A stretch of 64,000 nucleotides of DNA from Candidatus Poribacteria bacterium (GTDB taxonomy: Bacteria; Poribacteria; WGA-4E; WGA-3G): the NCBI GenBank assembly GCA_965198235.1, contig OZ240248.1, forward strand, positions 3,520,001 through 3,584,000. Direction: 5' to 3'. The translations under genes were made by a program, and so were the position numbers. The notes below the pieces were generated by a model. That model made no database searches. It worked only from the letters and a program-made list of their open reading frames with translations, and was not told the origin of the DNA. Shown here piece after piece: positions 60,603 to 64,000 of this stretch; the stretch's first letter is position 1; each line of letters starts with the position of its first letter.

Positions 60603-62231
60603 CTATTCAATGTCTATGGCACTCAGAATTCTCTGAAGCAGTTGGGCTTTTGGTATCACTCCTGCTAAACGATCAACAGCCTTTCCATCTTGGAACACGA
60701 TATAAGTCGGAGTTGCTCTGACCGGATATTTTTGGAGCGTTTGTCGACCATTCTTAATATTCAGTTTCGCGACAGCAAACGTGTTCCGTTTCTCTAAGGC
60801 AATTTCGGCGACAACTGGCGCCATCTGTCGACAGAACGGTCAGCCATCCTTTATAAACTCAAGCAGGATAGGAACTTCTGATCCGAGCACAAGGGTATTA
60901 AACGTCGCATCCGTGACTTCAAATGGGATGCCGGAGGTTTTACTGGCGGTGGTAAAACTAATGTTGATGTCGGTTGAATTGCCAGCAGCGTCCTTGACTT
61001 TCCCCGCAATGACGTAGGTTATCTCGTTGCCAAGTTCTTTGCCTTTTACCAATTCAAGCGTTCCCTTATTGCCTGCAATTTTGCCGAGCCATCCGACATC
61101 AGCACCTGCTGCGGTTTGCAGTGCGATGTTGCCGGTTACCTCTTCGCTGAATTCGACTTGTATGCGCCCACCACTGTTAAGTGCTTCAGGGTCAACGTCC
61201 TTATCACCGTCATTGACGCTTCCGCTGGTAATTTTGGGTGCCTCGGTGTCTGGTACAGCGACGGTATAAGCGAGCGTCTGGTTTCCATCTGCCCAAGTGA
61301 TCGTCAAAGCGAGGGGACCTGGGTCGAAGGGACCCGTGATTCGCATCCGTTTGCCAATGATTCGAGCCGTTCCTGTGCTTACAGTGACATCCTCTGGTGG
61401 ATTGTCAAAAGTAAGGGTGATGGTATCGTCGGCAGCGAGTTCCGAGTTGCCTGCTGGGTTCGCGCTAACGAACGCTGCGGGGGGTCTGATGGTATAGTTG
61501 AGCGTCTGAGTGCCATCCGCCCAAGTGACGGTCAATATGAGTGCGCCTGGGTCGAAGGGACCTGCGATTTTCACAGTTTTGTCAGTGACTGTGGTGGTGC
61601 CTGCGCTCACCGTAACATCCTCTGGTGGGTTATCAAAAGTAAGGGTAATGGTATCGTCCACAGTTAGTTGCGATTGGACTGCTGGATTCGCGCTAATGAA
61701 CGCTGCCGGGGTTCTGATGGTATAATCGAGCGTTTGGGCTCCGCCATTCCAAGTAAGCGTCAGGGCAAGGGGACCTGGGTCAAAGGGACCTGTGATTGTC
61801 ACGATTTTGCCATCGACTGTAGCGACCCCTGCGCTCACTGTAACGTCCTCTGGTGGGTTGTCCAAGGTAACGGTGATAGTATCATCTACGTCAAGCTGCA
61901 AGTCGGTTGCTGGATCCGCTCTAAGAAACACCGGAGTACTAACAAAGACTACAGGCGGAGGGATAGTTTTGCCGAAGTTTGCGGCGACGAGCGTCAGATC
62001 GAGGATATTGACGGTGCCGTCCCCGTTGACATCTGGGTTAGGGGATTGGTCTGCGGTGGGTGTCGCTCCGAAGTTTGCGGCGACGAGCGTCAGATCGAGA
62101 ATGTTTATCGCGCCGTCGGCGTTGACATCAGATGCTCTTAGGGTGTCGAGATCCACATCTTGTGTATAGCCTACGGTTAAATTAGTGAGGATTAAACAGG
62201 TCGTTAGGAATAAAACGGTGATTTTTTTCAT
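60603..62231 (-). CDS. Predicted selenoprotein (542 aa): signal peptide, dockerin-like pair, three Ig-like repeats, Big_5-like domain, thioredoxin with UxxC (UGA at 60840-60842)
   Basis: ORFs 60840-62231 and 60603-60824 are in frame; ...EFIKDG-TGA-PFCRQMAPVV...ATPTYIVF aligns with the thioredoxin DFWAxWCGPC..P motif. Confidence 0.8.
60809..60830 (-). promoter_or_regulatory. Candidate bacterial SECIS element
   Basis: mRNA CGACAG-A-UG-GCGC-CA-G-UUGUCG hairpin; G-starting loop 18 nt after the UGA (folded by eye). Confidence 0.55.
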
Positions 62232-62252
62232 CTGTTTTTCTCCGTGGATAGT

Positions 62253-62320
62253 TTATGCTTGTGTGCCGTGCCATTCTTGAACTGCTTCGGAAATCGCTGG
62301 CAGATTTTCGATTGTGGTTT
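62253..62320 (-). pseudogene. Duplicated 3' remnant of the upstream MtaA/CmuA-family gene
   Basis: Translates TTIENLPAISEAVQEWHGTQA* versus TTIENLQAIPEAVQEWHQAHA* at 62985-63053. Confidence 0.8.
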
Positions 62321-62355: not shown

Positions 62356-62964
62356 TTATTCAGTTTCATCAATCCCTAAGCTTCCAAGGATTTGTTGCAC
62401 CAGTTCAGCCTTAGGCTTTGCTCCGATGAAGCCCTGGACAATTTCTCCATCTTTGAATACGATATAGGTGGGCGTTCCACGAATGTGATATTCAGCCGTT
62501 TTCTCCAGTTGGGTATTTACATCCAACTTGACGAAACTAAATATCTCGCGATATTCCAATGCAACTTCTGCGACCACCGGTCTCATCAGTATGCAAAATG
62601 CTCAGGTATCGTCTTTAAATTCTACCACAATGGGGAGTTCGGAACCCAAGACAATATCGTCAAACGTCGCATCCGTGACTTCAAACGGGATACCGGATCT
62701 CCTACCAAAATGGCTTGCGACGCGTGTCAAATCGAGGATATTGACGGTGCCGTCACCGTTGACATCCGGGTTAAGGGGCTGATCTGCGGTGGGTGTCGTG
62801 CCAAAGTTTGCGGCGACGAGTGTCAAATCGAGAATGTTTATCACGCCATCGGCATTAACATCGGAGGCACTCAGGGCATCAAAAACCGCGTCTTGTGTGT
62901 AGCCTACAATTGAACTTGTAAGCATTAAGCAGGTCGTTAGCAGTAAAACGGTGATTTTTTTCAT
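62356..62964 (-). CDS. Predicted selenoprotein (202 aa): signal peptide, dockerin-like pair, thioredoxin with UxxC (UGA at 62602-62604)
   Basis: ATG at 62964; ...VVEFKDDT-TGA-AFCILMRPVV...RGTPTYIVF reads in frame into ORF 62356-62586. Confidence 0.8.
62560..62595 (-). promoter_or_regulatory. Candidate bacterial SECIS element
   Basis: mRNA UGCA..CUG..GACC-GGU-GGUC..CAG..UGCA hairpin; G-starting loop 23 nt after the UGA (folded by eye). Confidence 0.5.
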
Positions 62965-62984
62965 CTGTTTTTTCCGTATGTGGT

Positions 62985-64000
62985 TTATGCATGTGCTTGG
63001 TGCCATTCTTGAACTGCTTCGGGAATCGCTTGGAGATTCTCGATTGTCGTTTGAAGTGGGATTGCACACTCCGGTCCGATCAATGGGACACCTGCCTCAA
63101 GGTTTTTTACGACCTCTGCTTTAACGTCTTCCGGCTCTTTAGAAAACAGCGTTTCGGGGTTGTTGATGTTTCCGACGAGGGCAATGCGCTCCTGAACGAT
63201 GTCCATGGATTCTTGGGGTTCGTTTTTGGAATCGTAGTGGAAGGCGGACATGCCGGTCTGTGCGATGTACTCCATTCTATCAACAGTGCGCCCGCAGATA
63301 TGCAGGATTAAGGGAATAGGGATCCGTTCAACAAATTCGATGTGGAGGTCCCGAAGATAGCGTTGGTAGTATTCGCCACTGACGAGATCGCCTGTGGCGT
63401 GGTCGGGGAGCGTCAGCGCGTCGGCACCTGCCTCAATTTGTGCGACCCCGAATTGTACGGTGGCTTCCTTCATCCGATCGAGTGCGAGTTTCGTTTTACC
63501 GGGATCGTCAAGTGAGAGCAACAGGAAGGGTTCAACCCCGAAGCAGTGGTAACCGAGCGACCAGGGTCCCATCGTTTTCCCGATGACAGCGATTTCATCG
63601 CCGTATTCTTTCTTCAGGATTTTAATCGCTTCGAGGACGCACTGGGTATCGGGATGGGTCAAGAAATCGTCCGGTATAGCGATGTCGTCAACATCTTCCC
63701 AGATCGGTTCTCGCATTCTAACGGTGGGCCAGTTGTCCTTCTGTTCCCACTGAATTTTACAACCGAGTGCACTGGATTCTTGAATGATCGTGAAAACAGG
63801 CATGATGGTGTCGAATCCGAGTTCGGTATATCCTGTGGCGGCGAGTCGCGCCATGAGTTCCGGTTCTCGATTTGCCTGTGGGAAAGGGGCATCAACGAGA
63901 TCCATCAGTTCGACTGTAGCAACAGAAGTAGGGTTGCAGATAGGCGTGCGGTCGGTCGGTTCATTACGGAGCGCGGCGAGCACCCGTTCACGACCTGTCA
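62985..64000 (-). CDS. MtaA/CmuA methylcobamide methyltransferase / URO-D family protein; start codon cut by the window edge
   Basis: TGRERVLAAL N-terminus, LHICG zinc motif, VGNIN, GPEC. Confidence 0.85.
   Translation of the reverse strand, partial: TGRERVLAALRNEPTDRTPICNPTSVATVELMDLVDAPFPQANREPELMARLAATGYTELGFDTIMPVFTIIQESSALGCKIQWEQKDNWPTVRMREPIWEDVDDIAIPDDFLTHPDTQCVLEAIKILKKEYGDEIAVIGKTMGPWSLGYHCFGVEPFLLLSLDDPGKTKLALDRMKEATVQFGVAQIEAGADALTLPDHATGDLVSGEYYQRYLRDLHIEFVERIPIPLILHICGRTVDRMEYIAQTGMSAFHYDSKNEPQESMDIVQERIALVGNINNPETLFSKEPEDVKAEVVKNLEAGVPLIGPECAIPLQTTIENLQAIPEAVQEWHQAHA

Follow-up and report, generated by a model that had tools for sequence, protein, structure and literature searches.

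In Escherichia coli fdhF, the selenocysteine insertion sequence (SECIS) is a coding-region hairpin located just past the UGA codon, with a G and a U of its apical loop at about +23 and +24. The known example of a thioredoxin carrying selenocysteine (Sec) is a small single-domain cytoplasmic protein, and type I dockerins (PF00404) are familiar from the cellulosomal enzymes of cellulolytic clostridia. Exported thioredoxin-fold selenoproteins of marine metagenomes, including thiol:disulfide interchange, DsbA-like and Prx-like proteins, are reportedly described in the Sargasso Sea and Global Ocean Sampling (GOS) selenoproteome papers. Sec-thioredoxin (PF00085, UxxC) is listed among the characterised prokaryotic selenoproteins, beside many predicted thioredoxin-like Sec families, in the available part of a 2026 review (PMC13188914), and that part mentions neither Poribacteria nor "signal peptide" nor periplasm. 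Here, a stretch of 64,000 nucleotides (C1:3520001-3584000, termed the window, whose own numbering is used unless C1 is given) from the 5.17-Mb, two-contig genome of a Candidatus Poribacteria bacterium, a member of a sponge-symbiont phylum, was analysed for two neighbouring minus-strand genes, a long one at 60603..62231 and a short paralogue directly upstream of it at 62356..62964. Both are very probably intact selenoprotein genes, predicted to yield exported, dockerin-borne Sec-thioredoxins through hairpin-directed decoding of UGA.

The long gene is a single frame of 542 codons followed by a TAG stop. On translation of the minus strand between 60540 and 62300, an ATG at 62231 opens the frame, the TAG at 60603-60605 closes it, and the sole interruption is the TGA at 60840..60842, which is the predicted selenocysteine codon for residue 464 and the first position of the motif U-P-F-C. 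Read from the N- to the C-terminus, the product comprises a signal peptide, a type I dockerin, three immunoglobulin (Ig)-like repeats, a Big_5 domain and a thioredoxin domain with Sec. The signal-peptide-like N-terminus (62163..62231), recognised by inspection, consists of MKK, a hydrophobic stretch of 17 residues and G-Y-T followed by Q; likewise by eye, 85 of the 85 orthologous N-termini listed begin with basic residues, continue with a hydrophobic stretch and have a site of small residues ahead of Q or E, the cleavage-site pattern being mostly ..Y-A-Q or ..S-A-Q and the form in this genome G-Y-T-Q. The dockerin (61980..62132) is built of two near-identical segments, DVNADGAINILDLTLVAANFG and DVNGDGTVNILDLTLVAANFG, whose duplicated Ca-binding cores DVNADG..D and DVNGDG..D are those of a type I dockerin, and in a Pfam search of the read-through protein it was matched by Dockerin_1 (PF00404) at residues 34-84 (E 1e-10, 42 bits with a cut-off of 22.9). 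Three tandem Ig-like beta-sandwich repeats of 228 nt (76 residues) each form a stalk at 61260..61943, and as a DNA repeat family (D1) their copies are 77% and 69% identical to the reference copy. In the same Pfam search the bacterial Ig-like domain Big_5 (PF13205; 60948..61250) was found at residues 328-428 (E 7.6e-11), and the thioredoxin domain (PF00085; 60627..60920) at residues 438-535, straight across the TGA (E 9.3e-17, 61.4 bits with a gathering score of 23.5).

An AlphaFold2 model of the long protein, computed with 27 long-form orthologues, reached a mean predicted local distance difference test (pLDDT) score of 81.7 and contained three 76-residue beta-sandwich repeats at residues ~97-325 (pLDDT 85-97), which correspond to the three 228-nt DNA repeats and are followed by the Big_5 domain as a fourth Ig-like module and by the thioredoxin head. 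Foldseek related the stalk to tandem Ig arrays such as those of titin, RTX-adhesin extender repeats and S-layer proteins. The initial annotation of this DNA had proposed the same architecture, with a signal-peptide-like N-terminus, a duplicated DVNxDG dockerin, Ig-like spacers and a thioredoxin, and the profile matches, the model and the structural comparison bear out its dockerin, Ig-like and thioredoxin parts. The number of Ig-like repeats differs among species, giving long-form orthologues of 459 to 692 residues, and two of these (L017, L023) carry a second Big_5-like module within the stalk.

At the active site the local sequence of the long protein is L-L-E-F-I-K-D-G-U-P-F-C-R-Q-M-A-P-V-V, with U five residues past the Phe. 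Comparison with solved thioredoxins by phmmer (best E 9e-20) aligned U464 with the first Cys of W-C-G-P-C and the downstream T-P-T with the cis-Pro segment I-P-T; thus the TGA does stand mid-fold at the position of the attacking Cys and the fold does run on past it to the TAG at 60603, both of which had been proposed beforehand from the letters of the sequence. In the model, U464 sits at the N-terminus of helix 465-480, following strand 455-460, as is characteristic of the PF00085 fold. By Foldseek the head superimposed on Caulobacter crescentus Trx1 and E. coli Trx with template modelling (TM) scores of 0.90-0.93 and root-mean-square deviations of 1.0-1.3 A, and it is 33-35% identical to classical reducing thioredoxins in the structural alignments (sequence E 1e-19). 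In the NCBIfam scan, no curated selenoprotein or thioredoxin model matched at or above its cut-off; the TrxA equivalog TIGR01068 gave 64.4 and 66.1 bits for the two heads with a cut-off of 96.8. Because these scores fall below the cut-off and the motifs G-U-P-F-C and T-U-A-F-C differ from WCGPC, both predicted heads are thioredoxin-family domains rather than TrxA equivalogs.

The short paralogue (62356..62964), which the initial annotation did not list, consists of 202 codons and a stop and encodes a signal peptide, a dockerin and a thioredoxin with the motif T-U-A-F-C; its UGA (62602..62604) is the predicted selenocysteine codon of residue 121. A genome-wide profile search placed its PF00085 match at 62389-62682, with one TGA within it (61.6 bits), and its dockerin at 62713-62865. 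Between dockerin and thioredoxin there are four Ig-like modules in the long form and none in the short. The paralogues are 80% identical over residues 1-88 (signal peptide and dockerin), compared with 48% for the thioredoxin heads, so that their 5' parts (upstream DNA, signal peptide and dockerin; 61984-62320 and 62717-63052) are more alike than the heads. At the DNA level, 61984-62239 is 84% identical to 62717-62972 (duplicate D2), and the upstream region of the long gene (62236..62320, minus strand) is a duplicate (D3, 82% identity) of 62968-63052 upstream of the short gene, a segment which includes the 3' end of a URO-D gene; both upstream copies encode ..AVQEWH... Since this duplicated 5' DNA is common to both genes, the alignment identifies the DNA preceding the long gene as a relic of the URO-D gene located before the short gene, copied from its 3' end, and the shared 5' module looks like the product of segmental duplication or gene conversion.

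Conservation of the TGA was examined in the related genomes. In the genus of the window, 24 of the 24 genomes drawn have a match over the thioredoxin part with exactly one TGA, which stands at the aligned codon in the fetched loci. With the Big_5-plus-thioredoxin part as query and rows at E 1e-45 or better retained, 112 genomes of the family yielded 71 long-form rows, 69 with one TGA and two without a stop; the latter both come from one genome (G094) of another genus and read W-C-P-F-C. The long form is present in 62 of the 64 other genomes of the genus and was not found in genera g13 (0/40) or g9 (0/3) at that threshold. Protein identity flanking the codon on both sides amounts to 41-84% in other genomes. 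The short protein was searched against 176 genomes of the phylum, and a hand count of the 106 near-full-length rows listed gave 94 with TGA and 12 without a stop, with 360 weaker matches beyond these. In each of the 12 stop-less short orthologues the aligned codon is TGT or TGC, and the motifs are C-G-F-C, C-I-Y-C and C-F-Y-C. Among the matches listed, those of near full length are confined to the family of the window (genera g1, g13 and g9), and the best short-form matches outside the family (E ~1e-16 to 1e-23) are at the level of generic thioredoxins. Neither TAA nor TAG nor a frameshift was seen at the codon in the homologues examined, so the homologues with Cys or a conserved TGA that the initial annotation had suggested looking for are the only kinds encountered. 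The repeated alternation of the putative Sec with Cys is the classical signature of a true selenoprotein.

These alignments bear directly on the possibility that the TGA is a true stop, in which case the locus would encode a 463-residue dockerin/Ig protein lacking a complete redox domain, and the 73-codon frame behind it would be a separate small protein or untranslated. Open reading frame calls under table 11 do yield exactly these two frames (60840..62231, 463 aa; 60603..60824, 73 aa, with an ATG at 60824), the Sec forms stand in databases as truncated proteins, just as gene callers had been expected to split the gene, and the UGA of the long gene is bridged by no contig of the metatranscriptome (RNA) libraries described below. 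However, such a stop would sever the thioredoxin fold inside its active site, the sequence past the TGA is kept in frame as protein in every orthologue, and the Cys-bearing orthologues and paralogues are continuous proteins. With a genome that has Sec machinery and an RNA-level constraint found only in Sec forms, termination at this codon is considered highly improbable.

The Sec machinery that the initial annotation had recommended looking for is present in full. The genome profile search recovered SelA (517.7 bits) and SelB, the latter with its wing domain within a 671-aa frame, and a tRNA-SeC(tca) adjoins selB. SelD is present as well and is itself a predicted selenoprotein, with one TGA and the motif G-U-A-S-K near its N-terminus (C1:3115125-3116177, minus strand). 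Among 1341 stop-to-stop frames of at least 400 codons, TGA closes 291 (22%), TAA 644 and TAG 406; apart from such sites, TGA functions here as a regular stop.

Evidence at the RNA level was sought in the sequence following the UGA, using alignments restricted to sequences with the chosen motif pattern, in which each distinct 66-nt row was counted once. In the long gene, a SECIS-like hairpin (60807..60822, minus strand), GGCG-CCAGUUGU-CGCC, starts 17 nt past the UGA; its loop G is 60815 and its loop U 60814. Beginning at +19 past the UGA, the long form reads A-U-G-G-C-G-C-C-A-G-U-U-G-U-C-G-C-C. A set of 33 distinct orthologous sequences varies at only two of these 18 positions, the other 16, with all third codon positions among them, being invariant, whereas the flanking codons vary freely. 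The RNAalifold consensus of the long form has the stem GGCG/CGCC, in which 132 of 132 cells are paired; the variable pair 26-37 occurs as CG in 25 sequences, UG in six, AU in one and UA in one, and 5 of 500 shuffles match this. Two full compensations in this stem alter the protein (Ala to Val together with Ala to Thr, and Ala to Glu together with Ala to Ser), which is hard to explain otherwise and therefore points to an RNA constraint on the stem.

The corresponding hairpin of the short paralogue (62570..62584, minus strand) is GAGACC-GGU-GGUCGC. Its stem is GCGACC/GGUCGC with the loop GGU in genus g1, and GAGACC/GGUCUC or GAAACC/GGUUUC in g13. Among 56 distinct Sec sequences, pairing amounts to 86.9% of the 336 cells, with compensatory changes at two of the six pairs involving 26 cells (AU 24/CG 16; GC 27/AU 10); all 500 shuffles fall short of the observed values, and pairing in slid registers is 27-68%. 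The same structure imposed on the 12 Cys forms is 50% paired and shows no compensation, the loop G-U having become A-U or A-C. Neither Sec alignment shows any variation at G31 and U32 (column numbers; +28/+29 when counted from the U of the UGA). Over codons +6 to +12, synonymous pair diversity falls to 0.079 in the long Sec forms (0.31-0.41 elsewhere) and to 0.313 in the short Sec forms (0.41-0.51 elsewhere), with no dip in the Cys forms (0.557 vs 0.45-0.56 elsewhere). On these measures the RNA-level constraint is limited to the Sec forms. A subgroup with the loop CAGUUGU fits the tested register poorly, as does the subgroup U-I-Y-C..M-K-P-V-V, and both probably use shifted registers.

It could also be presumed that the UGA is read through but not as Sec, either by near-cognate suppression with Trp or Cys or by a lineage-wide reassignment of the codon. 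The inserted residue is not identifiable from sequence alone and the hairpin is short, both of which leave room for such decoding. Nevertheless, a codon that terminates 22% of the long open frames is not reassigned, the site alternates with Cys only, which is the mark of Sec/Cys pairs, the Sec system is complete down to a SelD predicted to contain Sec, and the hairpin with its loop GU disappears in just those forms that have Cys instead of TGA. Readthrough of this other kind is accordingly rated as very improbable.

Several observations weigh against decoding as Sec and the functions drawn from it. With 4-6 bp and a consensus energy of about -5.5 kcal/mol the hairpin is small, and the post-UGA sequence of the long gene on its own folds no better than shuffles (z +0.89, with 165 of 200 shuffles equal or better), so that its hairpin is visible solely by cross-genome comparison. 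One stem pair is an A.G mismatch in the short gene of this genome, and the short-form subgroup U-I-Y-C..M-K-P-V-V has two mismatched pairs in the tested register. The structures were tested on the very sequences that had served to derive them, and the shuffle control takes no account of relatedness. The dockerin of the long protein is modelled at a low pLDDT of ~37-52, the signal peptide likewise poorly, and the signal peptides of both proteins were assigned by eye alone. No RNA-library contig bridges the UGA of the long gene (the best run covers both sides of it, and the libraries may contain DNA), and the neighbouring genes (URO-D, BatA/VWA, a beta-lactamase-like protein and a PQQ-repeat protein) give no functional context. 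Selenium in the protein is predicted from sequence, and we infer export, docking, redox direction, substrate and compartment. As readings of the TGA, a pseudogene, a code reassignment and a true stop were rejected.

Taken together, decoding of both codons as selenocysteine is favoured because the Sec machinery, the kept TGA, the alternation with Cys in homologues and an RNA constraint that only the Sec forms show all converge on it, and we regard the two genes as intact selenoprotein genes with high confidence. SelB with its Sec-tRNA(Sec) would be recruited by the small mRNA hairpin 17 nt past the UGA, with the loop GU at +28/+29, and the ribosome would insert selenocysteine at the UGA in place of terminating. 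A Sec-pathway-type signal peptide, as the N-termini suggest, would then export each protein. In the classical thioredoxin fold the attacking Cys would be replaced by Sec, as U-P-F-C in the long and U-A-F-C in the short form, and both proteins could thus serve as extracytoplasmic thiol-disulfide oxidoreductases, the selenolate attacking a substrate disulfide or oxidised thiol, the second Cys resolving the selenenylsulfide and the enzyme being recycled. If they are periplasmic, the most plausible recycling partner would be the full-length DsbD of this genome, in which a transmembrane domain and a Trx domain are combined in one 658-aa frame.

The dockerins raise the question of where such enzymes might be held. 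Dockerin_1 has 33 matches in the genome, among which the short gene ranks first (49.9 bits) and the long gene fourth (46.1 bits). The cohesin-like partners that the earlier reading of the sequence had called for were sought as well, and Cohesin gave seven Pfam matches in five large frames. Two of these frames (1521 and 1548 residues; cluster at C1:4.896-4.910 Mb) combine leucine-rich repeats (LRR), two cohesins, a dockerin and a C-terminal FlgD_ig; the cluster (C1:4896545-4911695) has four large minus-strand genes, the other two of which (704 and 756 residues) encode LRR, dockerin and FlgD_ig. Such eukaryote-like-repeat proteins, bearing cohesin as well as dockerin, suggest a surface network that assembles itself. 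Relatives of the cohesin modules were found in 39 of the 40 other genus genomes searched, and since the modules occur both here and throughout these genomes, a cohesin-dockerin system, as judged by its domains, exists in this genome. Docking of the two thioredoxins on the cohesin-bearing proteins is a further possibility: the dockerin may hold the enzymes on the large LRR proteins, which would place the redox head at two different distances from the scaffold in the long and the short form. A complex prediction for the cohesin (30-row alignment) with dockerin residues 24-92 scored 0.07, where the mark is 0.32, and speaks neither for nor against docking.

Alternatively, the proteins could be real exported Sec-thioredoxins whose dockerins do not dock, having a Ca-binding or other role, so that the enzymes would be soluble, periplasmic and DsbD-recycled in the manner of CcmG, TlpA or DsbC. 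In a diderm, a Sec-type signal peptide delivers to the periplasm only; a full-length DsbD is encoded, the dockerin model is of low confidence and no cohesin gene lies near the locus. On the other hand, the dockerins score among the best of the 33 in the genome, their duplicated segment is canonical, the signal-plus-dockerin part is far better kept between the paralogues (80%) than the heads (48%), and cohesin modules are retained in 39 of the 40 other genus genomes. This periplasmic alternative is regarded as possible but doubtful. A more ambitious proposal is that the two Sec-thioredoxins are the redox component of an envelope assembly joined by cohesin-dockerin pairs and act at the sponge-symbiont interface, docking at two reach lengths onto the cohesins of giant LRR (eukaryote-like) proteins and bringing selenium chemistry to extracellular disulfides or oxidants. 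Although we consider it unlikely, it would, if true, be the first case in which docking of the cellulosome type delivers a selenoenzyme.

The direction of the chemistry could also differ from that of a reducing thioredoxin, and the Sec head might mainly act as an oxidant, in DsbA-like disulfide formation, or as a thiol-peroxidase-like scavenger of peroxide and host oxidants. In its favour, the dipeptide between the active-site residues is P-F (A-F, P-S or I-Y in relatives) and not the G-P of reducing thioredoxins; Pro typically follows the first Cys in the DsbA and glutaredoxin motifs, which are more oxidising, and Sec is resistant to irreversible over-oxidation. However, the overall sequence is nearest to classical reducing thioredoxins (33-35% identity, E 1e-19), and a mainly oxidising or scavenging role is deemed somewhat unlikely for what we take to be thiol-disulfide oxidoreductases.

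With regard to the surroundings of the pair, the URO-D family gene upstream (62985-63983, minus strand, and C1:3582985-3584013; E 6e-64) may be hemE or a URO-D-like methyltransferase. Some relatives (L029, L030, L035, L045 and L048) have an extra thioredoxin-type gene with the motif F-W-A-D-W-C-P-P-C, in which Cys is encoded and no TGA occurs, ~1.3-1.5 kb upstream of the short gene, where this genome has URO-D and unrelated genes. Elsewhere in the genome, C1:569883-570797 (minus strand) encodes a third exported thioredoxin-like selenoprotein candidate of 304 residues with the motif F-Y-T-D-W-U-G-F-C, a signal-peptide-like N-terminus and a helical-repeat C-terminal half that looks like tetratricopeptide repeats (TPR) by eye.

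Four metatranscriptome libraries of a single study ("sponge metagenome") also contain contigs that match the locus at 95-100% identity, and one contig (62070-63050) spans the entire short gene with its UGA. As these libraries may contain DNA, the contigs are weak support, and for transcription of the locus only. A coverage hole of run X2 at 60789-60886 is meaningless as evidence. Contigs of runs X5 and X8 join 61476/61478 to 62717 through 31-33 other letters, and these joints probably come from one or more related strains with a different repeat number or arrangement of the pair.

The family is systematically misannotated. In a collection of 5.8 billion proteins, the short-gene Sec forms are entered as proteins of 120 residues with PF00404 only, called "hypothetical protein" where they are named, and the entries of ~200 residues with both PF00404 and PF00085 are the continuous (Cys) forms; in other words, Sec forms figure as dockerin-only (short) or truncated (long) hypothetical proteins. 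Because the public entries are truncated, the redox function predicted for this gene pair, which is conserved in a major lineage of sponge symbionts, is invisible to metabolic reconstructions and metaproteomic searches. In the available portions of two studies, SelA and SelB clusters of orthologous groups (COGs) are enriched in sponge-symbiont bins (PMC5649159), and Poribacteria have a Sec variant of Group 4 hydrogenase (PMC13582414). The present genes would add concrete client selenoproteins in keeping with that SelA/SelB enrichment (PMC5649159) and would extend selenium use to exported, modular and possibly scaffold-docked enzymes. Moreover, the repeated switches from Sec to Cys in three genera, with matching loss of the hairpin, offer a natural data set for the evolution of coding-embedded SECIS elements.

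Overall, the closest described relative is the listed Sec-thioredoxin, which, as far as the available part of the review goes, shares with both proteins the thioredoxin fold, Sec in place of the first Cys of CxxC, and a UGA with a downstream coding-region hairpin; that this class is already listed makes the finding less singular (PMC13188914). Unlike it, both proteins described here carry a dockerin behind a predicted signal peptide, the long form has four Ig-like modules in addition, and the active-site residues are separated by P-F or A-F and not by G-P. Compared with E. coli fdhF, the predicted SECIS has the same placement and the same loop GU, while its stem is shorter (4-6 bp) and the GU stands at +28/+29. 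The exported selenoproteins of marine metagenomes are said to resemble the present ones in their UxxC thioredoxin fold, extracytoplasmic location, marine bacterial origin and prediction from Sec/Cys pairs; no dockerin or Ig-stalk architecture was found for them in the literature searched, and they are set apart by description only. SaoB, SaoC and SaoX are exported or lipoprotein bacterial selenoproteins likewise truncated at UGA in databases, and differ, in the available part of their description, by unrelated folds, CU motifs, anaerobic Firmicutes hosts and an ABC-transport context (10.1101/2022.07.06.499078).

With the cellulosomal enzymes, the two proteins have in common the duplicated 22-residue D-x-N-x-D-G..D Ca-binding segments and cohesins elsewhere in the same genome, but the cargo here would be a redox selenoenzyme and not a carbohydrate-active one, the dockerin is at the N-terminus, LRR proteins carry the cohesins and the host is a sponge symbiont. 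A search of the ESM Atlas with a natural Cys orthologue as query returned clusters combining dockerin with AhpC/TSA/Redoxin from Bacillota, Bacteroidota and others, at scores of 0.76-0.84 that make them leads only; these likewise join a dockerin to a thioredoxin-fold thiol enzyme, but one of PF00578/PF08534, and their cluster names are without Sec. A dockerin-selenoprotein architecture was not found, for Poribacteria or otherwise, in the literature searched, most subscription journals lying outside its scope. Within that scope, the recoding mechanism and the enzyme class are known, and what is new is the exported, dockerin-borne and stalked architecture together with its lineage-wide misannotation.

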